DNA of 64,000 nucleotides, from positions 32,001 to 96,000 of the IMG/VR virus record IMGVR_UViG_3300021962_008382. One strand, written 5' to 3'. The notes under the pieces were generated by a model that made no database searches, had not been told where the DNA came from, and saw only the letters and a program-made list of their open reading frames with translations. Below are positions 8,433-32,227 of the stretch, in pieces. The translations under genes were made by a program, and so were the position numbers. Position 1 is the stretch's first letter. Every line of letters begins with the position of its first letter. The DNA comes from a virus.

Positions 8433-8873
8433 GGTATTAGTTTAAGTTAATCAAACGGATAAATACGTATATCCACTCTGCTTATTTCGAGAATATGATA
8501 TCTTTCAAAGTGTTTATAATAGAAGGTGGTGATACACTTTCACCACAGCACAAACAAGCTATAGCTAGAGGCAGAAGAGGTTCTAGACATTCGAGCACTA
8601 CTAAGCTTAAGATAGCTAAGTCCATGGAAGGTAAAAAGAACTTCGAAGGTGAAGAGCACACCGAAAGATCTAAAGATCTTATAGGCGCTAAGCGTGGCTC
8701 AGCCGATAGAATTAAAGGCAGGCGATGGATAGTCAATCGCCGCGGCAAAACTTACCGCAAGTATCAAGCCCCCGTAGGCTATAAGCTAGGCAAGCGTGAA
8801 TTTAACCGACGATAAGTTTCTGTATATTCTCTTCGCGATCTCTTACTTGTGGTATTAGTTTAAGTTAATCAAA
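8433..8873. repeat. Pair of 23-bp direct repeats (8433-8455 and 8851-8873) flanking a plus-strand gene
   Basis: GGTATTAGTTTAAGTTAATCAAA is identical in both copies. Confidence 0.9.
8495..8815 (+). CDS. Basic NUMOD3-repeat protein with a capsid-targeting-like N-terminus
   Basis: MISFKVFIIE; LSPQHKQAIA, HSSTTKLKIA, HTERSKDLIG repeats; GATAAATA upstream. Confidence 0.75.
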   Translation: MISFKVFIIEGGDTLSPQHKQAIARGRRGSRHSSTTKLKIAKSMEGKKNFEGEEHTERSKDLIGAKRGSADRIKGRRWIVNRRGKTYRKYQAPVGYKLGKREFNRR

Positions 8874-15704: not shown

Positions 15705-16259
15705 ATGATCCATTACTATTGTTTTCACAAAACTAGACAAATAATCGTTTCTGATCTTCCTGTAGAAAAGATCAGAAAGAAATATGGTCATGAGTACGAA
15801 ATTCTTACTTCTGTAAAAGAAAAATCTTCTGTAGAAGTAATTAATGCTCGTACTGCTCGATCTTATTCCAAATATATTATAACTGAAGACTATTTAGTAA
15901 TCAAGAAGAGAAATACCGAAAAAGCTGTAGCTGCTGCAATTCTAGCTACTAAAGGTAAACCGAGAAGTGAGGAAGTAAAACGTAAAATATCTTTAAAGCT
16001 TAAAGGCCGGGGTAGATTTACGGGTAAAAAACATAGACCAGAATCTAAACAAAAAACTTCTGAAGCTATGAAAGGCAATACTAATTCTAAAGATTTATAT
16101 TGGGTTTACGATCCTAATTCTGATTATGAAACTCGTATTAAAAATAGAGAGGACCTTCCCCCAGGCATGAAGTTTGGTAGAGATTATTATTCTACTGAAG
16201 CAATATCTATGTTTAAATCTTCTACCAGGCCTCCCACCAATTCTCCCAAGGAAAAATAA
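15705..16259 (+). CDS. NUMOD3-repeat protein related to homing endonucleases, no clear catalytic motif
   Basis: GKPRSEEVKRKIS, GKKHRPESKQKTS, C-terminal W...P.G..GR; start adjusted to MIHYY. Confidence 0.75.
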   Translation: MIHYYCFHKTRQIIVSDLPVEKIRKKYGHEYEILTSVKEKSSVEVINARTARSYSKYIITEDYLVIKKRNTEKAVAAAILATKGKPRSEEVKRKISLKLKGRGRFTGKKHRPESKQKTSEAMKGNTNSKDLYWVYDPNSDYETRIKNREDLPPGMKFGRDYYSTEAISMFKSSTRPPTNSPKEK

Positions 16260-16659
16260 CCCAGCAAGGGTCTTCTAGCTTGTTAATTGTAAGCCCGGAA
16301 AAATCTGCCGTAAAAGTAGAAGACTCATTATCAATTAAATAGCAATACTTTACATTTAGTTTTGCATATCTAGAATCTAAATCTTGTTTTATTTTATGGG
16401 ATGATGACCCGGTGTCGTTTATATCATCTATAAACAATATCTTAATGTGAGGAAATATTTGAGGGAGGATTATTCCTACCCCTTTATTAATAATATAACA
16501 AGGTATATCATAATATTGACTGATGTAGTTCGCAGGAACGATGCCTCCTCTCGCTGGCCCTAAAACCAGATCCGGTCTCCAGTTTTTAAGAGTAAGTTGC
16601 CGAATAATATCAGAAGTATATTTTTTTACTTGTGTATCACTGATATACAATTTTTTCAT
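16222..16659 (-). CDS. Type I phosphoribosyltransferase (Gpt-like)
   Basis: ARGGIVPA, PRPP motif ILFIDDINDTGSS, WVIFPWE. Confidence 0.88.
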   Translation of the reverse strand: MKKLYISDTQVKKYTSDIIRQLTLKNWRPDLVLGPARGGIVPANYISQYYDIPCYIINKGVGIILPQIFPHIKILFIDDINDTGSSSHKIKQDLDSRYAKLNVKYCYLIDNESSTFTADFSGLTINKLEDPCWVIFPWENWWEAW

Positions 16660-18786: not shown

Positions 18787-19847
18787 CAGTCATCGCCCTT
18801 ATTCTGAGCTTCAATATAAAGTGTTTTCATTAGAGTCTTCAAACGATTTTTATCACCCATAATATCAACACTGTCAATATATTGAGAAAGTAATGACATA
18901 GTATCTTCTACATCTAGATTATCATCCTGAAGTATGTCTGCTTCAAATTCTGACATATCTTCTATTATTTTTAACTCGATAGGACCATAATTATTAATCC
19001 TATCGATTAATTGATCAAACTTATAATAGTCTGTTTTATTTACTACCACCAGCTTCACGTGTTTATCTTTAAAATCATCTTCTGAATATCCCCAATCTTT
19101 AGTATCATCGTAATATACTTTTGTAAAGATAGTGAAGGGGTTTGGAATAAATTCTAGCTCAGCAGTATCAGTATTAAATAGGTGAAAACCTCGAGGATCA
19201 TCATAATCTGACCATGTCATTTCATACGGATTGCCCAAATAGGTAATATTACCTTCTGTAGATCTATGATGAAAATGACCTGAGCAAACTAAATCAAATT
19301 TATCGAATACTTTACGATCAAATCCTTCATGGTTATCATGGCCTTTATACATCTGAAACCCGGCAATCTCAAAATGACCAAACATAACTTTAGAGTTAGT
19401 TTCTTTTATTTTAGTCTGAAAGAGCTGGTAATTATCAGTACACACCCAAGGCATAAGTAATATTTGAGTATTACCTACTTTAATCTCAACTGGTATTGAG
19501 TGTGATATTACATTATTATACTCTCTAAGAAGAAGATCAGGAGAATTAACATCATTAGTATTCTTATGGTAGGTATCGTGATTTCCTACAATCATAACAA
19601 TACGAACATCACGTTTCTTAGCTTGATCAAAAAAATATTCTCTACAAGACTTAAGCGTGTTGTAGTTAATATATTTCCTTCTATCAAAACAGTCCCCTAG
19701 ATGAAAGATAGTTTTAATACCTTTTGCATCTATAGTTGGCCAGAAGCATTCTTCGTAAAACTTTTTAAAGAATGAATCGAAAGGAAGGGAATCTGATCTA
19801 GCTCCAAAATGAGTATCTGTTACTAAAGCTACTAGCTTATCCTTCAT
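18786..19847 (-). CDS. gp47: Recombination endonuclease nuclease subunit (Mre11/SbcD-like)
   Basis: TDTHFGAR, LGD.FDRR, GNHD, SGHFH; start adjusted to MKDKL. Confidence 0.96.
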   Translation of the reverse strand: MKDKLVALVTDTHFGARSDSLPFDSFFKKFYEECFWPTIDAKGIKTIFHLGDCFDRRKYINYNTLKSCREYFFDQAKKRDVRIVMIVGNHDTYHKNTNDVNSPDLLLREYNNVISHSIPVEIKVGNTQILLMPWVCTDNYQLFQTKIKETNSKVMFGHFEIAGFQMYKGHDNHEGFDRKVFDKFDLVCSGHFHHRSTEGNITYLGNPYEMTWSDYDDPRGFHLFNTDTAELEFIPNPFTIFTKVYYDDTKDWGYSEDDFKDKHVKLVVVNKTDYYKFDQLIDRINNYGPIELKIIEDMSEFEADILQDDNLDVEDTMSLLSQYIDSVDIMGDKNRLKTLMKTLYIEAQNKGDD

Positions 19848-20355
19848 AGATAGCGGAGTTTCCGGCATGTTCAAATACTTCAACAGATTTAACTCTTACT
19901 GTATGATTTAACAACTTACCATCGAAGAGTTTAATATGTAGGATTCTAGATAGCTCTTGATAGGCCATTTCGGCAAATCTCTCACAACCTACCCCAGGTA
20001 CGATTCTAAGATCACAAACAGCACCACGTTTATAAGCAACTGAACTTTCGAGATCAAGTGCTGTCATATCTACTATATTAGATAGTTCGCGAAAGGTACT
20101 AATATGAGGATCGTCTTCTGCAATGAGTAGAGTATGATCGAACATATAGTCTAGCCAATTTTTGAAATCTTTAAGACCGCCGAAATCCATTACCCAGTTT
20201 CTTTCATCTAAACTTTCACACTCAAAAATAACTTTAACACCGATAGAATATCCATGCAACGTAGAGCAGTGTGAATGCTTAGCTCGCCACTGACGAAAAC
20301 AGCACGACAGCCCACGATCAGTTCCATATGTCTTTGTAGAATAAAATTTGCCCAT
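19837..20355 (-). CDS. queD: 6-carboxytetrahydropterin synthase
   Basis: HCSTLHGY, WVMDFGGLK, FDHTL, GCERFA, EHAGNSA. Confidence 0.92.
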   Translation of the reverse strand: MGKFYSTKTYGTDRGLSCCFRQWRAKHSHCSTLHGYSIGVKVIFECESLDERNWVMDFGGLKDFKNWLDYMFDHTLLIAEDDPHISTFRELSNIVDMTALDLESSVAYKRGAVCDLRIVPGVGCERFAEMAYQELSRILHIKLFDGKLLNHTVRVKSVEVFEHAGNSAIYEG

Positions 20356-20361
20356 ATTATC

Positions 20362-20712
20362 TCACATTTTGCAATTAGTAAAGTCTGCAGTATACCAATT
20401 AGCTTGTGCTTCAGGTGATTTATCTTTCTGCCATTTTTTACTTACCGGGTCGTATTGGCCTACTCGAGAAGATATTTCTTTGATTACTTCGTTCATAACT
20501 TTATCGCCATTATAACCGTACTTAGCAATCTCCCCATAAGCAAATACAATAATATCTGCCATAGCATCTATGCGACCTTCTGTATCGGGAGCTGCAATAA
20601 ATTCTCCAAGCTCTTCGACGATCATAGAAACGAAACCATTACGATCAGGTGTTTGAAACGTAATCAGACGTTCATCAGACCAGTCTCTAATACGTTCAAA
20701 ATTAGTTTTCAC
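20362..20712 (-). CDS. MazG-like all-alpha NTP pyrophosphohydrolase
   Basis: EELGE...DAMADI acidic motif. Confidence 0.75.
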   Translation of the reverse strand: MKTNFERIRDWSDERLITFQTPDRNGFVSMIVEELGEFIAAPDTEGRIDAMADIIVFAYGEIAKYGYNGDKVMNEVIKEISSRVGQYDPVSKKWQKDKSPEAQANWYTADFTNCKM

Positions 20713-20878
20713 TCTTAACCTCTCGATCTTTAACTAAACTCATTTTTCTAGCCTGATCAGCACACAATTGAGCTGATACCACCGAACGCAGGTATTTACC
20801 TCTTTCGTGTTTATCTAGATATCTAGATGCGATAATTTTATTTTCCTTATTTAGTTTAAATGTATCGGTAGGTTTCAT
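20702..20878 (-). CDS. 58-aa basic hypothetical protein (not in ORF track)
   Basis: Translated by hand, MKPTDTFKLNKENK...KSEN; fills the gap and overlaps both neighbours. Confidence 0.65.
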   Translation of the reverse strand: MKPTDTFKLNKENKIIASRYLDKHERGKYLRSVVSAQLCADQARKMSLVKDREVKSEN

Positions 20879-21477
20879 TAGAACTCCATGAAGTACGGGT
20901 TTTCAAAAGTGTTAAATTCGTGTATTGATATTAATTTTCTTTGCGCTAGATCTATTTTAAAGACATGATTAGGAATAAGTGACTGACTATTCTCAAATTT
21001 AGTAGAAGAAAAATTCATCTGACTATCATAATACATAGGAGATATTTCATTACGAAAAACATACAGCCCGTCGTTATTATATAAGATACAAGCAAATGTT
21101 CCATCTATTTCGGAAAGAGAATCCCATCCCTGTTCTTTAATTTTTTGTAGTAACCAAATAGTATCCCACTGACCGGGTACTAAGGTTTTCTGTTTTACTA
21201 TACCATTATGCCAGAGATAAGAACCTCTATACACAGCAGGATGTATATTACTTGCTTGAGTAGTAGGAGCCTGTGAGTGACAGACTGTAAAATACGATTT
21301 ATCATTAAATAAAAAATCAGGAGCTACGCCTTTACCTCTTACTAACTCTTGCATAGTAAACTCTTCTTCCCACAAAGTAAAGTATGCAAAAGAATAACTC
21401 AAAGATCCTCTGTACGAATTTAGCGTATAAAGATCTTTGAGTTTATTAGAAGAGAAAGATGCGATTATAGAGCACAT
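20878..21477 (-). CDS. Class II (Ntn) glutamine amidotransferase-like protein
   Basis: N-terminal Met-Cys, RG, HSQAPT, HP, WHNG, DG.FA, RN..SP. Confidence 0.85.
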   Translation of the reverse strand: MCSIIASFSSNKLKDLYTLNSYRGSLSYSFAYFTLWEEEFTMQELVRGKGVAPDFLFNDKSYFTVCHSQAPTTQASNIHPAVYRGSYLWHNGIVKQKTLVPGQWDTIWLLQKIKEQGWDSLSEIDGTFACILYNNDGLYVFRNEISPMYYDSQMNFSSTKFENSQSLIPNHVFKIDLAQRKLISIHEFNTFENPYFMEF

Positions 21478-21479
21478 AG

Positions 21480-22067
21480 TTATTTTTTCTTACAGTTATC
21501 AAAATGCCATCTCTTAGCATTACCTATAGTAGTAGTATAGTTGCAATAAGGACAAGTTGCCATAAGTTTAGCAGGGTGTTTACCGGAACTAATAGCGTTT
21601 TTTGCTGCTATACTTTTTGCTGCCCGATCTTCTTTTGATCTAGTTTTACCTTTCCACCATTTATTAATACCTAACTTAATAAACGTTTCTCTAGCATCTG
21701 GTCTAGGTCTTCCTCTGTTAGCTTGAGAGATTTTTTGTTTCGATTCTTCGGAATGATAAAATACTCTTTCTAAATAATATGTGTAGCCTCCGTGACCCCC
21801 TATCGCTAAATTATAGCATGCTGGATCCTTAACAACATCTTCTGTAATAATTTTTTGCTCTTCCAAAATTAATTCTTTTTCTGTACTATGTATGGAAATA
21901 ATTTTTTTATTAAAATTTTGTTTACCGTATTTTTTAATAGCGGCTTTTAACCTCTTACCTGAACCAAAATATAAATCTTGCTCAGGGTCCTTTCCATCGA
22001 AAGCTCTTCTACCGTAATAATAATGATTATTTAAAACGTTAGTTATTTTATAAATGTAGTAAACCAT
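21480..22067 (-). CDS. Free-standing GIY-YIG (Seg-like) homing endonuclease
   Basis: YIYKITN..N..YYYG, YFGSG..LK.AIKKYG..NF, YNL..GG, NUMOD3 repeats, C-terminal CPYC...HFDNC; start adjusted. Confidence 0.92.
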   Translation of the reverse strand: MVYYIYKITNVLNNHYYYGRRAFDGKDPEQDLYFGSGKRLKAAIKKYGKQNFNKKIISIHSTEKELILEEQKIITEDVVKDPACYNLAIGGHGGYTYYLERVFYHSEESKQKISQANRGRPRPDARETFIKLGINKWWKGKTRSKEDRAAKSIAAKNAISSGKHPAKLMATCPYCNYTTTIGNAKRWHFDNCKKK

Positions 22068-22117
22068 TTTTTTTCCTAATAAACGTATATAATATATAGC
22101 TATTAGGATCTTTAGAT

Positions 22118-22852
22118 TTACCATGTAATTTTTATATTATACGGGGCGGGGTCTTTAAGTTTTAATTTTAAGAAAGCATTGATTCTTTCAGCACACGAGG
22201 GACACTTTCCGCATGAATAGCCGTTTTTTCCGGGGTTATAACACGTTATCGTGTTAGCTAAAAGGTCGGTATTACCATCAAGCTCCTGTAGAATTTTTAT
22301 TTCTTCATATTTACTTAAACTACTAAAAGGTGCAATAAGCTTGATTTTTATTATTCTATTTTCAGACAACAAGTCATTAACCTTACCAATCCATCGCGCT
22401 GTAGTGTCGTGATAATTATATTCATCCGTTGATTGAAGACCGCAAAGAATAGTATCTACATTTTTAGTCTCTGCATATGCAGCTGCAATCGACATAAGTA
22501 TCATATTGCGATTAGGGACATACGTTGGAGGACGAGGGTCCCCTAGAACATCTCTAATAGTAGGCATCTCAATGTTTTTATCTACATTAGCTGAGAAACC
22601 TTGAGATATATCTCCTAAGAAAGAAGCATCTACTACTTTATGACAGACCCCTAACATGCTTGTTGATAGCTTGGCGCATTCTATTTCAAATGCCTGTTTC
22701 TGACCGTAAAAAAAAGTAAGAGCCGAAACATTTTCAGCCCCATACTTTTCTACAGCCAGTCGCATGGTAATAGTAGAATCTAAACCACCGGAAAGAATAA
22801 CTACACAACCCTTGGTATCGGGTAGTAAATTAAGAGCTTCACTTAAGATCAT
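22118..22852 (-). CDS. queC: 7-cyano-7-deazaguanine synthase
   Basis: SGGLDST, YGQK, TYVPNRN, CY...CGKCPSCAER. Confidence 0.96.
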   Translation of the reverse strand: MILSEALNLLPDTKGCVVILSGGLDSTITMRLAVEKYGAENVSALTFFYGQKQAFEIECAKLSTSMLGVCHKVVDASFLGDISQGFSANVDKNIEMPTIRDVLGDPRPPTYVPNRNMILMSIAAAYAETKNVDTILCGLQSTDEYNYHDTTARWIGKVNDLLSENRIIKIKLIAPFSSLSKYEEIKILQELDGNTDLLANTITCYNPGKNGYSCGKCPSCAERINAFLKLKLKDPAPYNIKITW

Positions 22853-23075
22853 CTTTTACTCTCATCAACTCTTTTTGAATTCTATGAATATACACACAAG
22901 AATCCATAAGCTCTTCCTTGAGGTGTTGTATCCAGTCTTCCAATGATAGATCATTACGCTCAGTGGTAACACCGTATTTGGTAAATCCTTTTTGTGATCT
23001 GCTTACAAACTCTTCACATAGTTCATTTACATTCTTATCAGGTGAGTTCATTATTGCCTCGGTGTCTTTTGACAT
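22839..23075 (-). CDS. Small all-alpha NTP-pyrophosphatase-like protein
   Basis: G..KYG...W..HLKEELMD..VY. Confidence 0.6.
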   Translation of the reverse strand: MSKDTEAIMNSPDKNVNELCEEFVSRSQKGFTKYGVTTERNDLSLEDWIQHLKEELMDSCVYIHRIQKELMRVKDDLK

Positions 23076-23968
23076 GGACGAGTAACGTTAAGAATATTCG
23101 ATTGACGGTAAGCTAATTCATATGAAGAAGCTCGTATAGGGTTGATATCAATGCCCCCTCTCCGAGTATAGAGGCACATCACTAATAGCTCCTCGGGTTG
23201 TATTAGATCCCACAAACGCTTATAAATGCATTCGGTAATCTCTTCATGAAAGTGGTTCTCTTTTCGCATCGATACAATATACTTAAGTAAAGATTCCGGT
23301 GTAACCGCCTTATCCCCTTTAATATGGATATAGACATCTCCCCAATCGGGCTGATTAGTTACACGACAGTTCGATCGAAGTGAGTGTGAACGCCATCTTT
23401 CATACCGTCCAATGGATGGTACTACTTCAAGAATATCAGCTGATTCATTATAATCTGTAAATACCATTTTTTCAATATTACAATACTTCTCAAGCGAGAT
23501 GAAATCGCCTGTGACTGGTTTAAACGTATCTACATCACCTATATGGATAGTTACATTAACTTCACCGCCTACTACATCTGATAAATCCATAGAGATTTTA
23601 TCTTCTATGATCCATAAATCATCTAATGTGGTCATAATCTTATCCATATTATATGAATTAAGATATAACTTGACAGATTTAGATTCTACGATATTAGGTG
23701 TATTAGATTGGTATTGAAATTTTAACCAACCGGATACTGGAAATCCATTCTTAAGAAGAGTGGAAAATTCATACGCGTTCCAGGCATCACCACCTACGAA
23801 AGGCAGATTATCATCTTCGATACCGTAAGCAGTTCTATTAAGAGAACGAGGAACACCGACTAAGAGACTGCTGTCTACTTTATCGGGCGTAACGTATGGT
23901 TTTACTACAGATCCATCTCCAGCTTTACCAAGATGGACCGAAGCTAGTTCGTTAATTTTATCGACCAT
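23051..23968 (-). CDS. queF: preQ0 reductase, bimodular QueF
   Basis: QueF motif ESKSVKLYLNS, catalytic SNCRVTNQPDW, FHEE, YTRRGGIDINP. Confidence 0.95.
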   Translation of the reverse strand: MVDKINELASVHLGKAGDGSVVKPYVTPDKVDSSLLVGVPRSLNRTAYGIEDDNLPFVGGDAWNAYEFSTLLKNGFPVSGWLKFQYQSNTPNIVESKSVKLYLNSYNMDKIMTTLDDLWIIEDKISMDLSDVVGGEVNVTIHIGDVDTFKPVTGDFISLEKYCNIEKMVFTDYNESADILEVVPSIGRYERWRSHSLRSNCRVTNQPDWGDVYIHIKGDKAVTPESLLKYIVSMRKENHFHEEITECIYKRLWDLIQPEELLVMCLYTRRGGIDINPIRASSYELAYRQSNILNVTRPCQKTPRQ

Positions 23969-24491
23969 TAATCACCTCAAGTACTTGATTGACTCTTTCT
24001 CTTACGGAGCCGGATACATAATGCACCGGTATGTTATGTTCTTCAATTACATCTATGAAGGATCTATTGATCTGATTCCGAAATGATGTATTGGTAGAAC
24101 GAACACCATCTGAAACTATATCAAACTCTGGTTTAATAAAGAACAGATAATCATAATAAGAAATAAGCTTATGAAACACATTATAGGCTATTTCCATAGT
24201 TTCTTCTTTTATGTTACCGCTCTGTCTTAGCCATTTCGTATACACTAAACCATCTAATACAGTTCGATCAGTAATCATATTCTTATTTAAAAATATATTA
24301 TAAACATGTTTCATCATGATTAACTCTTGAGTATGGTCATTACCTTGCTCGTTAATTGGTAGACCGATTTTTTTTACCCATCGAGTTACTTCGTCACACA
24401 CTACGTAATCTTGAAATTCCTTTTCTGATCTTAGAGCGTTAAGCAGAGTTGTCTTACCTACTGACTGCGACCCCGTTATTCCAATACGCAT
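23958..24491 (-). CDS. P-loop nucleotide kinase-like protein (AAA_28/NadR-like)
   Basis: GITGSQSVGKTTL, TDRTVLD, DGVR. Confidence 0.8.
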   Translation of the reverse strand: MRIGITGSQSVGKTTLLNALRSEKEFQDYVVCDEVTRWVKKIGLPINEQGNDHTQELIMMKHVYNIFLNKNMITDRTVLDGLVYTKWLRQSGNIKEETMEIAYNVFHKLISYYDYLFFIKPEFDIVSDGVRSTNTSFRNQINRSFIDVIEEHNIPVHYVSGSVRERVNQVLEVINGR

Positions 24492-25023
24492 TAGTTCTCA
24501 TCCTCATGAATTGTGTCCACGATTGTAATGACAATTCCTTTAAAGTTCCATATACTTCATCTAAGTTTTTTGCCAGATTCTTTTGGTGCTTCTTAGTATA
24601 AATCTCACCAGCATCTACTTCAGGTATTACTCTATGAACTACTGATCCCAGAGTATTATATTTACCCTCCCATGTTCTTACTTGCGGGTCCTTACCTTTG
24701 AGTTCTGGGTAGATATCAATAGCTGCAGGGTGGCCATTATAAATCTCATACATTTCACAAACGTCTTGTGGTACAAGTCGAAGATATCCATGCAGGGTAA
24801 TTATAGTATCACAGGGTCGCCAAAGGGTCTGTTCTCGTAAGAAGGTCATCAGCATATCGTGACTGCCATACTGAATCGGCGCACCAATCATTCTAAGCTT
24901 AGGGTTAATTTTTAATGTCGTCTCGTAATTATTAGTAGCAATTAAATCCGGTACTTTGTTTAAAGATTGGGATAACTGAACAATCTCAGAACCGGTCTGA
25001 CTAAAAAATGCAATCCATTTCAC
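24454..25023 (-). CDS. PurN-like formyltransferase, candidate preQ1 formyltransferase (DpdN-like)
   Basis: FFSQTGS, LHGYLRLV, YNGHP, G.VVHRV..EVDAG. Confidence 0.85.
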   Translation of the reverse strand: MKWIAFFSQTGSEIVQLSQSLNKVPDLIATNNYETTLKINPKLRMIGAPIQYGSHDMLMTFLREQTLWRPCDTIITLHGYLRLVPQDVCEMYEIYNGHPAAIDIYPELKGKDPQVRTWEGKYNTLGSVVHRVIPEVDAGEIYTKKHQKNLAKNLDEVYGTLKELSLQSWTQFMRMRTNAYWNNGVAVSR

Positions 25024-25829
25024 TCATAATCTCCTGTTACAATTTGTCTAAACACATCAATATTCAAGTCAATAATATCAGAAGAAATATTATCAGGTTG
25101 AGCATTAATAAGGTTAACCAGCTTGGTAGATTCTTTAGTCATCAGACCGGTAGATTCATACATTATATTTTTTAGACCATGTACTATAGGGTTAGATGTA
25201 TCGACTGATTCTATCCAATCAAACCCGTTACGATAAAATAGGAATTCAATAGGAAGAGAACAACCTAACAGATGATGTGGTTTACTTTGATTTATAATAC
25301 CTTCTTCCAACATCCTACTCAGTACATGAACTCGGCCTAGCGCAAATGATACCCACTTATTAGGGTGTGGAAATACTTTTTGATAATAAGAATAATCAAA
25401 AGAAATAGCCAACTTATCTACGTTGATTATTTCATCTAGATACCGATAACAGCCAACAATTTCTTCATATGATCTACCCTGAGCCACTCCAATACTTTTA
25501 CATTGCTGTGGAATACTATCTGCATAAGTAGTCTTCCATTTAACCGCATTAGTAATAGTAGAGATACTATCTTCTAACGCATCTGGAAGAATATATTCGG
25601 TTGGAACTAGTTTCTTAACCCACTCTGCATACTTATTCATATCGAATGCAGTTCCTAATTCGAATATCGAGTTATCTAAAATAACCTCTCGACCCATTTT
25701 AAGAGAATCAACAAAGAACTCATGATATTGTGGTATTTCATCTAGAAGGTGTACTAAACAATAATCATAGTCATTATACACTCTCGAATGTTCGAGCATC
25801 GATAGAGGGGATTCATGTGAAATTTTCAT
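25020..25829 (-). CDS. dpdA: TGT-fold base-exchange enzyme (DpdA3-like)
   Basis: ILDNSIFE, LPD, IGVAQG, HLLG, SVDTSNP follow the TGT/DpdA motif order; lies inside the que operon. Confidence 0.75.
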   Translation of the reverse strand: MKISHESPLSMLEHSRVYNDYDYCLVHLLDEIPQYHEFFVDSLKMGREVILDNSIFELGTAFDMNKYAEWVKKLVPTEYILPDALEDSISTITNAVKWKTTYADSIPQQCKSIGVAQGRSYEEIVGCYRYLDEIINVDKLAISFDYSYYQKVFPHPNKWVSFALGRVHVLSRMLEEGIINQSKPHHLLGCSLPIEFLFYRNGFDWIESVDTSNPIVHGLKNIMYESTGLMTKESTKLVNLINAQPDNISSDIIDLNIDVFRQIVTGDYE

Positions 25830-26263
25830 TGTAATTGCTCAATTATCTCTGTTTTTACTGGGACCCACAACAATAAATCACCAAATTTATTAGGTTTTTT
25901 CCTAGATAAATTTGCCCGTATATAATCTATCATATCATTAACTTTATAACGGTAGATGGATTTTGTTTCAGTATCTACACCATAAATTTCTTTTGCTGCA
26001 GATGAATATATCCACCCAACATTTTCACGTCTTTTATTATAAAGTTCAACACCAAGGTAACCTTTAAAATAATTGGACTTTACATCTACCGGTACACCAT
26101 TAATAATAAAGTCAATCTTTAAATTAACTTGACTGTTAGGATCTACTTTGTGTTCGTAATTAAGCTTATTATGCTCACAGTAAATACGAACAATCTCTTC
26201 ACCCTCGTCCCCTTTGGCTCCGTTAGTACCGTATCTACCTTCTGAATTATTATACCAGGTCAT
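25826..26263 (-). CDS. PD-(D/E)XK restriction-endonuclease-like protein
   Basis: G..GEE.V helix, IDF, VDVK, E...GW. Confidence 0.65.
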   Translation of the reverse strand: MTWYNNSEGRYGTNGAKGDEGEEIVRIYCEHNKLNYEHKVDPNSQVNLKIDFIINGVPVDVKSNYFKGYLGVELYNKRRENVGWIYSSAAKEIYGVDTETKSIYRYKVNDMIDYIRANLSRKKPNKFGDLLLWVPVKTEIIEQLQ

Positions 26264-26264
26264 A

Positions 26265-26942
26265 TTAGCGTTTAATTAAAGACATAAACTCAGCACGGGC
26301 TTCAGGTTCAGTTCTAAAACACCCACCCAGCTTAGCAGTGTAAGTATAAGAGGAATGATCTTCCACCCCTCTCGACTTTACACAATAATGAACCCCTTCA
26401 ATAACAACTGCAATATCCTCAGTACCAAGAATAAATGCAAGAGAATGATATACTTGCTCAGCAATGCGTTCTTGGACCTGCGGTCGTCGAGCAAAATATT
26501 CAACGATACGATTAAGCTTAGACAAACCGAGAACTTTATCTTTAGGAATATATGCTATATGGGCTTTACCGTCAATAGTTACAAAATGATGTTCGCAGTT
26601 AGACATTAATGTAATGTCTTTTTCAATTACCATCTCATCGTAACCCATCTTATTCTGAATTACAGTTACCTTAGGAAAATTATCTGGTTTCAACCCCCAG
26701 AAAATTTCATTTACATACATCTTTGCAACACGTTTAGGGGTATCAATAAGAGAATCATCTTGAAGATCTAAACCCAAAGTTTCCATAATAGATGTAAAAT
26801 ATTTTTCGATCTTTTTAATCTTCCATTCTTCTTTCTTAAGAAGAGGATCAATCAGCGTAGGGGTATGAACCCCTTTCGATTTTAAATACTCTTCCACTTT
26901 ATAACCGAGCTCGGCATCGGTTTTACCTTTTTGAAACGACAT
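26265..26942 (-). CDS. folE: GTP cyclohydrolase I
   Basis: TPKRVAKM, CEHH, GLSKLNR, RPQVQER, HYC..SRG. Confidence 0.97.
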   Translation of the reverse strand: MSFQKGKTDAELGYKVEEYLKSKGVHTPTLIDPLLKKEEWKIKKIEKYFTSIMETLGLDLQDDSLIDTPKRVAKMYVNEIFWGLKPDNFPKVTVIQNKMGYDEMVIEKDITLMSNCEHHFVTIDGKAHIAYIPKDKVLGLSKLNRIVEYFARRPQVQERIAEQVYHSLAFILGTEDIAVVIEGVHYCVKSRGVEDHSSYTYTAKLGGCFRTEPEARAEFMSLIKR

Positions 26943-26960
26943 ACTTTACTCCTTAGTTAA

Positions 26961-27797
26961 TTAAGTTCCCCACTCGTTTTTGAAAAGAGGAACCTGCAAT
27001 CTATCTGAATATCTCCATCCTCTCTTCATAGCCATCTCAGCTACTGTTCGATTATTGAGATGATATACTGATTCCACACCACCTACGGGCATCAAGTATA
27101 CAGGACCTTTAAACCCAGCTTGCCTGTATAGTTTAACAGCTTTCTCGGCATCCTCTGCATCTTCTTTTGTTGCTACCACAAACTTAAGATAAGTATACCC
27201 TACCTCTTCATAAGATGCTACGATATCCGGTAGAATAGCATCTTCCCATTTTTCACCTGAGACCGGTAGTTTAGGTGATACGGAAAATGTGATACCATCC
27301 CATTTAAAACCGTAAAGTGAACGCTCAAGTTCTTCAGTAATTACTTGTGTTCCGTTAGTTTCAAAAGTGACATCTGTCAACGTCATCATCTTTTCGTTTT
27401 CTAACAAAGCCGGGTAAGCTCGTTGCCACCCGAGAAGTGGTTCCCCACCAGTTATAACTAAATGCTCTCCATCCCATACACCATGGGGAAGTAATTGTAT
27501 AATCTTTTCTACGATAGTTTCAACCGACAGCATCGGTGAAAGATGTTTAAACCTTACGTCCCAAGATGCGTAAGAATCACATCCTGTAGAGACTAAAGGT
27601 AACTCTTCGTATTTTTTGAAAGACTTTGCATCGGTAGCGATTATATCACGCTCAGTAGAAACTTCACCTATAGGCATACCGAAGCCTGAGCAAGTAAAGT
27701 TACAACCGAAGGTACGGAGAAACACAGACGGTACGCCCATGTACCGCCCTTCACCCTGAATAGAGTAAAACAGTTCTGCTATTTTTATCTTGGACAT
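26961..27797 (-). CDS. queE: 7-carboxy-7-deazaguanine synthase (radical SAM)
   Basis: FYSIQGEG, GCNFTC...CDS, TGGEP, ETNGT, SPKL. Confidence 0.95.
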   Translation of the reverse strand: MSKIKIAELFYSIQGEGRYMGVPSVFLRTFGCNFTCSGFGMPIGEVSTERDIIATDAKSFKKYEELPLVSTGCDSYASWDVRFKHLSPMLSVETIVEKIIQLLPHGVWDGEHLVITGGEPLLGWQRAYPALLENEKMMTLTDVTFETNGTQVITEELERSLYGFKWDGITFSVSPKLPVSGEKWEDAILPDIVASYEEVGYTYLKFVVATKEDAEDAEKAVKLYRQAGFKGPVYLMPVGGVESVYHLNNRTVAEMAMKRGWRYSDRLQVPLFKNEWGT

Positions 27798-27799
27798 TT

Positions 27800-27840
27800 A
27801 TGCTCCTAGTTTTGTTAATAGGTGGAAGGGCACCTATCAC
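27800..27840 (-). promoter_or_regulatory. Candidate riboswitch-like pseudoknot 5' UTR of the que operon
   Basis: UGAUAGGUG-CCCUUC-CACCUAUUA-ACAAAACUAGGAG; the loop can pair with the SD. Confidence 0.45.
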
Positions 27841-27846
27841 CTGCAC

Positions 27847-27875
27847 ATTATAAATTATAACAATCAGAAAATCCA
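27847..27875 (-). promoter_or_regulatory. sigma70-type promoter of the 7-deazaguanine operon
   Basis: TGGATT-N17-TATAAT, the same -35 variant as early cassettes 4, 8 and 10. Confidence 0.75.
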
Positions 27876-28466
27876 CTACTCCATATCTGAATTATCCGAT
27901 TCATCGTAACTATCAACCTTTTTTTCACGCTGCTTAATCATCTTGCGTTCTGGTTCGATAGTATCATTATGTTTCTTTACTAGCTCCAAAAGATAATTTA
28001 CAAATTCTTCATTATCTTCTGCTTGCGAGACAATTTGATCGATATCAATATTATCTAGTAACCTATATTTAGTTGCCTGATACTTTTTTTCTTTCTGAAT
28101 TCTTCTTACGAATGCAAAAAAAGTTATCTGAGTGTAGTAAGCAAAGGGGTTTGAAAATCTCGTAGGGTCAAATTTATCGACTGCAGATAAGCAATTTTCT
28201 ATACCGTCAGATATCATATCATCTTTAAAAGTATAGTTAATAAAATTACCCTTATAAGAAAGGTGAGTTGCTATCTTAATGAAGCAATCGCCTATGTAGT
28301 TACTTACTTTAGGTTTGGGCAAACCCTTGGCAGCTGCATCTGCAACTTGAGCTCTATACTCAATTAAAGCTTCGAGAAATTTTTTATTATCAACGTAGTG
28401 AGCATTTCTAAGCTCAATGGATTGTTGGCTTTTCTGCGACTTCGCTTTCTTCTTCATCATCTGCAT
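27876..28466 (-). CDS. gp55: Late transcription sigma factor
   Basis: HYVDNKKF, YIGDCF.KIA, NF..YT...DMISDGIENC, NPFAYYTQI; start uncertain. Confidence 0.95.
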   Translation of the reverse strand: MQMMKKKAKSQKSQQSIELRNAHYVDNKKFLEALIEYRAQVADAAAKGLPKPKVSNYIGDCFIKIATHLSYKGNFINYTFKDDMISDGIENCLSAVDKFDPTRFSNPFAYYTQITFFAFVRRIQKEKKYQATKYRLLDNIDIDQIVSQAEDNEEFVNYLLELVKKHNDTIEPERKMIKQREKKVDSYDESDNSDME

Positions 28467-31639: not shown

Positions 31640-32227
31640 TTATAATGTTTCAATTGTTAACGTTCTGAACTTAAAAGTTGCTCTTGAGGTTAGATACTCT
31701 AAAGAACCACCCGCAGTAGTAGTATCGAAATCCAAAGGCTCTACTGATATAGGGAATAAGTCTTTGAGTATTATATTAGTTTTAGCATTATTATTGCTAT
31801 CTAAAATGGTCAAAGTTCCGTCTGAATATCCCAAAACTTCATTATTAGATGAACCAGCTTTAAAGGGAAATCTATTAAGTCTTTCATTTGCAAAGTTTTT
31901 AAATTCAGCATAATTGTTAGGAAACCCTAATGCTGTAACCCATTCATATAGCTCAACGTAATTGCTTAGATCTTCTGCAATAATAAATTTAATAGTTAAA
32001 TCGGTGTACATGAGCTTGTCACCGATAATTGGTCTATCAATAAAAGGTGTAGGTTGGTTAATGAAACCTAACTGAATACCAGGTAGGTTAGCAGCCTGGC
32101 AAGTATAAGAAACTTTAGGGAGGTCTTTTATAACTAATCTAAAACCGTTAGGTCTTAGAAAGTTATGGACTGCAACAGAAGGAGATGTTACAGTCGACTT
32201 TAATTCTGAAAGATTAGATGTGTACAT
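31640..32227 (-). CDS. gp3: Tail tube terminator / completion protein
   Basis: NFL.P.GF, CQ.ANLPG, GDKL, EDL.NY.E; position after gp23. Confidence 0.85.
   Translation of the reverse strand: MYTSNLSELKSTVTSPSVAVHNFLRPNGFRLVIKDLPKVSYTCQAANLPGIQLGFINQPTPFIDRPIIGDKLMYTDLTIKFIIAEDLSNYVELYEWVTALGFPNNYAEFKNFANERLNRFPFKAGSSNNEVLGYSDGTLTILDSNNNAKTNIILKDLFPISVEPLDFDTTTAGGSLEYLTSRATFKFRTLTIETL

Follow-up and report, generated by a model that had tools for sequence, protein, structure and literature searches.

How some phages achieve 100% replacement of guanine in their DNA is an open question, and the sole paper on DpdA3, a transglycosylase found in such phages, assumes that bases are exchanged after replication and failed to reconstitute the reaction. 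This question is raised by an operon in IMG/VR record IMGVR_UViG_3300021962_008382, of which we analysed positions 32,001 to 96,000 (64,000 nucleotides, hereafter the window, whose numbering is used throughout). The source record comprises 158,915 bases, is 94% complete and derives from an uncultured T4-like myovirus. Between gp55 (27876-28466) and gp47 the window encodes 14 open reading frames (ORFs), all on the minus strand and in the order given by the initial annotation, that include dpdA3, the formyltransferase gene dpdN, a kinase gene and genes for synthesis of preQ1. At the gene level this operon is a further member of the DpdA3/DpdN system. What is new is an uncatalogued leader RNA, together with a clade whose gene swaps make a pre-replicative model of base replacement directly testable.

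The enzyme that would exchange the base is a minimal TGT (tRNA-guanine transglycosylase)-barrel guanine transglycosylase of 269 amino acids, encoded at 25020..25829 on the minus strand and assigned to DpdA3 by homology and by its TGT fold. Among cultured phages this ORF matches only DpdA3 proteins, with the closest similarity to DpdA3 of the Flavobacterium phage immuto_2-6A (54.5% over 244 amino acids, E 3e-81) and lower values for Firehammervirus (43-44%). While a sequence search of the PDB returned no match, the structural model (predicted local distance difference test score 93) has an archaeal TGT as its best fold (Z 18.3, root-mean-square deviation 2.9, 234 residues aligned) followed by DpdA 7UI4 (Z 17.6). 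Residues D51, D82, Q116 and D209, candidates for the catalytic Asp pair and the base-binding Asp/Gln of the TGT/DpdA superfamily, are invariant in 120 homologues and align with motifs of the phage 9g DpdA1, their equivalence to TGT residues being taken from motif order. The protein is a bare barrel without the zinc-site cysteine motif of TGT, and it belongs to a large family of 4,884 clusters. Overlapping dpdA3 is dpdN (24454..25023, minus strand), which codes for a PurN-like formyltransferase (PF00551, Formyl_trans_N) that is homologous to and syntenic with immuto YP_010114479. Liquid chromatography-mass spectrometry of immuto_2-6A DNA established that deoxyguanosine (dG) is completely replaced by formylated dPreQ1 (fdPreQ1) (PMC10516641). 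The initial annotation had predicted fdPreQ1 in the present phage as well, and this prediction is well supported by orthology and by synteny with immuto_2-6A (dpdA3-dpdN-kinase-queF). Additionally, queF and dpdN are kept together in more than 90% of DpdA3 clusters. From gene content, we consider it highly likely that fdPreQ1 replaces dG in the DNA of this phage.

When in the replication cycle the swap occurs is addressed by the gene downstream of dpdN, which encodes a P-loop nucleoside/nucleotide kinase (23958..24491, minus strand; AAA_28, dNK) whose best matches among 50,697 phage records are found in DpdA3 phages. We grouped DpdA3 at 80% identity into 46 clusters with enough flanking sequence, and a kinase gene lies no more than three genes from dpdA3 in every one of them (34 with the P-loop kinase, 12 with a DUF3310 gene only). 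In these 12 clusters a DUF3310 gene takes the place of the P-loop gene between dpdN and queF, as at 8574-8816 of locus L417, and one complete 160-kb genome has no P-loop kinase anywhere, with DUF3310 occupying its slot. T7 gp1.7, a kinase that acts on dTMP and dGMP, belongs to the DUF3310 family (PMC10700055, PMC11897194). In our tree the 11 DUF3310-only rows are not monophyletic (p-AU 0.0001), which forces at least two changes; on this phylogeny the kinase swap or its reversal would thus have occurred more than once, or else the genes recombine. In loci L430, L435 and L437 a DUF3310 gene follows queF, at the position that a 78-amino-acid ORF holds in others. A gut phage contig (L477) carries a different DpdA3 cassette, dUTPase-kinase-queC-dpdA3, that retains the kinase with no dpdN or queF nearby.

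The same association extends to phages whose DNA has been analysed chemically. In all three with measured 100% replacement (CP220, immuto and phiST), dpdA3 or dpdN has a P-loop kinase-like gene as its neighbour, and in phiST this is CGPG_00066, a previously unassigned gene adjoining dpdA3 whose product we recognise as a P-loop protein (AAA_18, E 9e-7). In contrast, neither kinase is present in the DpdA2-type cassettes of pf16, VH7D and the T4-like sisters L155 and L744, the latter two of which carry the same leader RNA as the operon described here. The presence of a kinase gene in all 46 DpdA3 clusters, its displacement by DUF3310 and its absence from DpdA2 cassettes are new observations. Two unrelated kinase folds that share one slot, and that are tied to DpdA3 and not to DpdA2, would fit a step that phosphorylates a modified monophosphate. 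Published data in favor of this route are the detection of ADG nucleoside in the cytoplasm of CP220-infected cells and the failure of DpdA3 to modify DNA in an E. coli test in which DpdA2 worked (the latter in PMC10516641). The pre-replicative route suggested by the initial annotation gains genuine support from the kinase link, even though the route itself is still something we infer. We regard base exchange on free nucleotides, ahead of replication, as likely, and the combination of an fdPreQ1 product with a pre-replicative route as somewhat less secure yet still favored.

The second novelty of the operon is found in the 78-nucleotide gap ahead of queE, which contains a hairpin followed by AACUAGGAG. 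This leader, termed motif A (27800..27842, minus strand; 43 nucleotides), consists of a P1 stem, a six-nucleotide loop NCCUUC and a tail AACUAGGAR, and is a riboswitch candidate. Pairing of CCU in the loop with AGG in the queE Shine-Dalgarno sequence would give an H-type pseudoknot that buries the latter. Motif A is not a member of the Rfam PreQ1 family RF00522, against which it scores 21.6 bits (E 0.94), below the 39-bit gathering threshold, and our literature search found no paper that describes it. Loci fetched by DpdA3 alone contain it after gp55 or in front of queE. A pattern scan of IMG/VR that required neither a stem nor a gene found queE within 1.5 kb downstream in 27 of the 28 matches having a stem of at least four pairs, as compared to 0 of the 87 without one. 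A metagenome scan provided 83 distinct copies, with a que gene first downstream in 71 and with 7 cut short, and of 61 long loci, 59 have motif A upstream of dpdA3 at a distance of no more than 9 kb; L354 (a chance pattern match), L369 and L375 were not counted against the link between motif A and que genes. Among the matches listed for bacterial genomes, a single copy is genuine, and it lies on a phage-like contig that also carries dpdA3. We did not find motif A in the cultured phage loci of immuto, CP220, phiST, 9g, pf16, VH7D and BUCT-ZZ01. A preQ1-like match in L048 falls within coding sequence and was set aside as chance.

Base changes among these copies support the proposed structure. Five of the seven P1 pairs change on both sides, giving a covariation score of 0.36 against no more than 0.07 for slid controls, in an alignment that was chosen for stems so that the paired fraction is not independent. 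The middle pair of P2 is C-G in 79 copies and A-U in 5 that may be one lineage, with 0 mismatches; where copies stand in tandem, this pair is altered on both sides in the upstream one. Although the pseudoknot could also form as UUCC:GGAR, covariation in the tandem copies follows the CCU:AGG register. Both the specificity C before the P1 3' strand and the G-C floor are invariant in 41 sequences, which is partly set by the search pattern but is also seen in the DpdA3-fetched loci. The first loop base is C in 58, A in 5, U in 2 and G in 1, and a U precedes AGG, so that the L1 uridine and L3 adenine that read the minor-groove edge of the ligand are both missing. Tandem arrangements, in which the first tail abuts the second stem, occur at L007:7640-7700, L016:1670-1730, L156, L351, L494 and L498-L500, while L423 has two separate copies 230 nucleotides apart. 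Shorter variants, with the second stem pair reversed, precede folE in marine contigs of the DUF3310 type (L441:3888-3920 and L443:3864-3894).

A second leader, motif B, stands before folE in immuto_2-6A (L001:10270-10306) and is also found in L501-L619. It resembles a preQ1-I type II leader, having a 4-bp stem, the loop UCGUAGNAC and a tail AAAAAC, and the immuto copy gave no PreQ1 match in Rfam. The first gene downstream is queD, folE or queE in 52 of the 56 IMG/VR matches with the stem versus 0 of the 29 without it. Motif B is thus found in a cultured phage with proven fdPreQ1 DNA, and it precedes many queD genes as well. Riboswitches have been reported to be rare in phages (PMC5473149). Motif A probably works like a riboswitch of the preQ1-I type, as an OFF switch. 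It heads que operons whatever their first gene and whether they contain DpdA3 or DpdA2, so the signal it reads is probably shared by both pathways and is not a formylated product.

A number of observations weigh against exchange on free nucleotides. To our knowledge the characterised members of the TGT fold all act on polymers, and DpdA3 keeps that fold. The kinase is the only recognisable deoxynucleoside monophosphate (dNMP)-type kinase in the genome, which has no member of the T4 gp1 family, and it may be a general enzyme of deoxynucleoside triphosphate (dNTP) supply. Its best fold match is the nucleoside kinase domain of NadR (Z 18.9, followed by dGK, dNK and TMPK at Z 14-15), which leaves the substrate level ambiguous, and more distant homologues occur in Streptomyces phages that lack DpdA3. 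There are few DpdA2 and DpdA1 controls (~6 cassettes), and relatives of two queries are over-represented among the DpdA3 sequences sampled. The charge of DpdA3 is not a sign of a non-DNA substrate, since the DNA-acting 9g DpdA1 is equally acidic. Furthermore, Cui et al. (2023) proposed post-replicative insertion for all DpdA enzymes with no mention of the kinase (PMC10516641). In their model DpdA3 would act on newly made DNA, DpdN would formylate before or after insertion, and the kinase would only supply ordinary dNTPs or rescue released nucleotides. The TGT/DpdA fold, the action of DpdA1, DpdA2 and bDpdA on DNA, and the lack of any other dNMP kinase found in the genome all speak for this model. 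However, it leaves unexplained why a kinase gene accompanies dpdA3 in all 46 clusters, why it is replaced in place by an unrelated family and why it is absent with DpdA2; swapping each G in a genome of 160 kb by way of abasic intermediates would also seem costly. We therefore judge post-replicative exchange to be unlikely, while giving it appreciable weight. There is a considerably smaller chance that the DNA holds not fdPreQ1 but a mixture of bases or a different derivative (dPreQ0, dPreQ1, or dG+ produced jointly by the amidotransferase and QueC). Gat-QueC fusions do make G+ (PMC10516641), the activity of DpdN is only predicted, and immuto has no stand-alone amidotransferase beside queC; however, phi-ST2 and phi-Grn1 have the same amidotransferase by queC and make a preQ1 derivative, and the joint retention of queF and dpdN also argues for the formylated base. 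Finally, the TGT fold and the que genes would fit a pathway that supplies queuosine for host or phage tRNA. This is very improbable given that the closest characterised homologues are the DpdA3 enzymes of phages with fully substituted DNA, that the protein is a bare 269-amino-acid barrel lacking the zinc-site cysteines, and that DpdN has no role in queuosine synthesis.

The leader RNA also has a competing explanation. Autoregulation of T4 gene 43 and gene 32 occurs through translational operators that are bound by protein, and motif A could likewise be an operator for a phage or host protein instead of a small-molecule riboswitch. In keeping with this, the L1 uridines through which class I aptamers contact preQ1 (PMC10622847) are missing from the six-nucleotide loop, the Rfam score is far below cut-off and phage riboswitches are rare (PMC5473149). 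Nevertheless, the G-C floor, the C before the P1 3' strand and the CCU:AGG pairing of type III are kept, tandem forms exist, motif A heads que operons irrespective of the first gene and of the DpdA type, and motif B heads folE or queD in the immuto lineage. A protein operator is accordingly a doubtful alternative, though less so than post-replicative exchange, and a riboswitch remains our preferred interpretation.

Our working model combines these elements. The established chemistry is that FolE, QueD, QueE and QueC make preQ0 and that QueF converts it to preQ1; here ammonia for QueC would come from the stand-alone amidotransferase. DpdA3 would then put preQ1 in place of guanine in a free deoxyguanosine nucleotide, with dGMP the most likely substrate, and DpdN would formylate the aminomethyl group. 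The kinase would convert the modified monophosphate to the diphosphate, a step that host kinases may perform poorly, and the gp43 polymerase would incorporate the modified triphosphate into DNA. The swap itself would drain dGMP so that no dedicated dGTPase is needed, and a phosphoribosyltransferase (PRTase) may recycle the freed guanine. As the product of the pathway accumulates, the leader pseudoknot would close over the queE Shine-Dalgarno sequence and reduce translation. The full conjunction, in which DpdA3 acts on nucleotides before replication with either kinase and feedback occurs through phage riboswitches of a new, minimal class with a 7-deazaguanine pathway product as their signal, is offered tentatively, at somewhat less than an even chance. 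The ligand is possibly a nucleoside or nucleotide, as the uridine that reads N9 is lost. If this model is true, DpdA3 would be the first nucleotide-acting TGT, and 7-deazaguanine dNTPs could be made enzymatically. The partner that DpdA3 has been missing is suggested by the replacement of one kinase by another and by the comparison with DpdA2. Riboswitches are considered rare in phages; the 40-nucleotide candidate is present in over 80 different sequences of phage type, sometimes in tandem, and a cultured phage has a sister motif.

The initial annotation had also proposed that two pyrophosphatases remove dGTP, a claim that our data do not support. The 78-amino-acid ORF (22839..23075, minus strand), which had been called MazG-like, encodes a helical viral protein of no named family (its Atlas clusters are unnamed), with no support from Pfam, annotated PHROG or Atlas and no profile match to the 116-amino-acid family discussed below. 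It has a conserved EExxD motif, is missing from immuto and from the complete relative G005, and is common in 43-kb Pseudomonas siphoviruses; the immuto ORF that follows queF has no similarity to it and was rejected as a homologue. The 116-amino-acid ORF (20362..20712, minus strand; PF01503, E 5e-6) does code for an all-alpha PRA-PH/MazG-like nucleotide pyrophosphohydrolase, probably of the dUTPase type. Its slot is held by a DCD/dUTPase-fold gene in most relatives, we found no trimeric dUTPase in this genome, and the DpdA2 phage pf16 also has a pyrophosphohydrolase in this slot. A dUTPase role is the simpler reading, but it is not certain, since two loci carry both PRA-PH and DCD/dUTPase-fold genes. 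No dedicated dGTPase was identified.

The remaining members of the operon, all on the minus strand, complete the preQ1 set (FolE, QueD, QueE, QueC plus QueF, each recognised by Pfam). These are queE for CDG synthase (26961..27797; radical SAM, PF04055), folE for GTP cyclohydrolase I (26265..26942; PF01227, E 4e-61), queF for a bimodular preQ0 reductase (23051..23968; QueF_N and QueF), queC for preQ0 synthase (22118..22852; QueC Pfam match) and queD for CPH4 synthase (19837..20355; PTPS/QueD). A stand-alone Ntn glutamine amidotransferase of 199 amino acids (20878..21477; weak GATase_7, Cys2) has homologues that adjoin queC in KVP40, VH7D, phi-ST2, phi-Grn1 and pf16. Since these include Vibrio phages that make a preQ1 derivative, the enzyme most likely supplies ammonia to QueC and does not serve G+ synthesis. 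A 58-amino-acid basic ORF (20702..20878) is present in some relatives. Between folE and dpdA3 is an ORF for a probable PD-(D/E)XK nuclease of 145 amino acids (25826..26263), whose Atlas neighbours carry PDDEXK_14 and NOV_C on a minority of members. It is coupled to dpdA3 and could cut unmodified host DNA. Diverse ORFs of 120-175 amino acids precede dpdA3 in most T4-like relatives, the one in L417 matching NERD. Downstream of gp46 is a purine PRTase-like gene (16222..16659, minus strand; PF00156, E 4e-10) with a possible role in guanine salvage, and PRTases are also located near the cluster in immuto, phiST, BUCT-ZZ01 and several relatives. Additional genes occur in related loci. For example, an ORF for a hydrophobic protein of 54-59 amino acids is often located between the leader RNA and queE (L007, L015, L016, L020-L030), and a 231-amino-acid gene product follows queD in L007 and L023-L025, with the L007 copy of the Vut_1/YhhQ type and a possible precursor transporter. 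The cultured T4-like Synechococcus phage BUCT-ZZ01 (L490, ON615601) has queE-PRTase-queD-folE followed by two unannotated genes for 416-447 amino acids, with neither DpdA3 nor motif A found.

The initial annotation described the run as tightly packed, and intergenic gaps are indeed -38 to +18 nucleotides, with the exception of 50 nucleotides ahead of the likely start of a GIY-YIG/NUMOD3 homing endonuclease gene (21480..22124, probable start 22067, minus strand; SegE GIY-YIG and NUMOD3). The run extends by overlap beyond queD into gp47/gp46. That a single promoter heads it is unproven. A putative promoter (27852..27862, minus strand) can be drawn from an extended -10 (TGnTATAAT, 27862-27854) and a second TATAAT from 27852, and relatives have TATAAT/TAAATA-type boxes directly 5' of the leader motif; however, three further extended -10 sites lie within the run and sigma-70 matches are at chance level (43 vs 40.4). 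The operon had also been viewed as carrying extra parts, but these parts are the standard cassette across a large T4-like clade: the same gene order between gp55 and gp47 is present in ~20 T4-like contigs, and the homing endonuclease alone is a sporadic insertion that most relatives lack. The capsid protein is nearest to those of Pelagibacter phage Mosig and Methylophilales phage Melnitz (66%). The record ends (158127-158915 and 1-2019) each hold part of the gp43 polymerase gene, which indicates that the record is nearly a full circle. An examination of palindrome avoidance gave no clear signal.

For completeness, we compare this operon with known systems. It shares with immuto_2-6A (PMC10516641) DpdA3 (54.5%), DpdN, QueF, FolE, QueD and QueE, the dpdA3-dpdN-kinase-queF order, and a nearby PRA-PH gene and PRTase. 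They differ in that immuto has Pol A, whereas the present phage has a T4-like chassis with a family B polymerase and one compact operon to which a nuclease, an Ntn amidotransferase, the 78-amino-acid ORF and a homing endonuclease are added; the leader is motif B before immuto folE and motif A here. Motif A in turn resembles preQ1-I type III (RF00522; E. coli, PMC10622847) in its short G-C-closed P1, a pyrimidine-loop CCU that pairs with the Shine-Dalgarno AGG, the C just before the P1 3' strand, an A-rich tail and its location before que genes. It departs from type III in its six-nucleotide loop, no UU in L1, UC in place of AC, a U where type III has the ligand-contacting A27, a score of 21.6 vs 39 bits, its having been found only in phage-type contexts and its tandem forms. 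DpdA3 is likewise encoded by CP220, a Firehammervirus of Campylobacter (dADG), and by the Cellulophaga phage phiST (dDG), with a P-loop kinase-like gene next to it and an HD or MazG hydrolase close by; these phages contain a different base and have no dpdN or queF beside their dpdA3. The DpdA2 cassettes of the Vibrio schizoT4 phages VH7D and phi-ST2 and of Pseudomonas pf16 share the order folE-[dpdA]-queF-queC-amidotransferase, with the pf16 pyrophosphohydrolase in the next slot. Unlike the operon described here, they have a DpdA2-type enzyme (assigned by motif and position), low modification, no kinase and no DpdN. T4, with hydroxymethylcytosine, and the Z-genome phages replace a base completely and pre-replicatively, drawing on the nucleotide pool and a kinase of their own. 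The system proposed here would differ from them in that a TGT-fold transglycosylase makes the modified nucleotide, with no dedicated dGTPase identified, yet would share with them complete substitution by way of the nucleotide pool and a kinase supplied by the phage.

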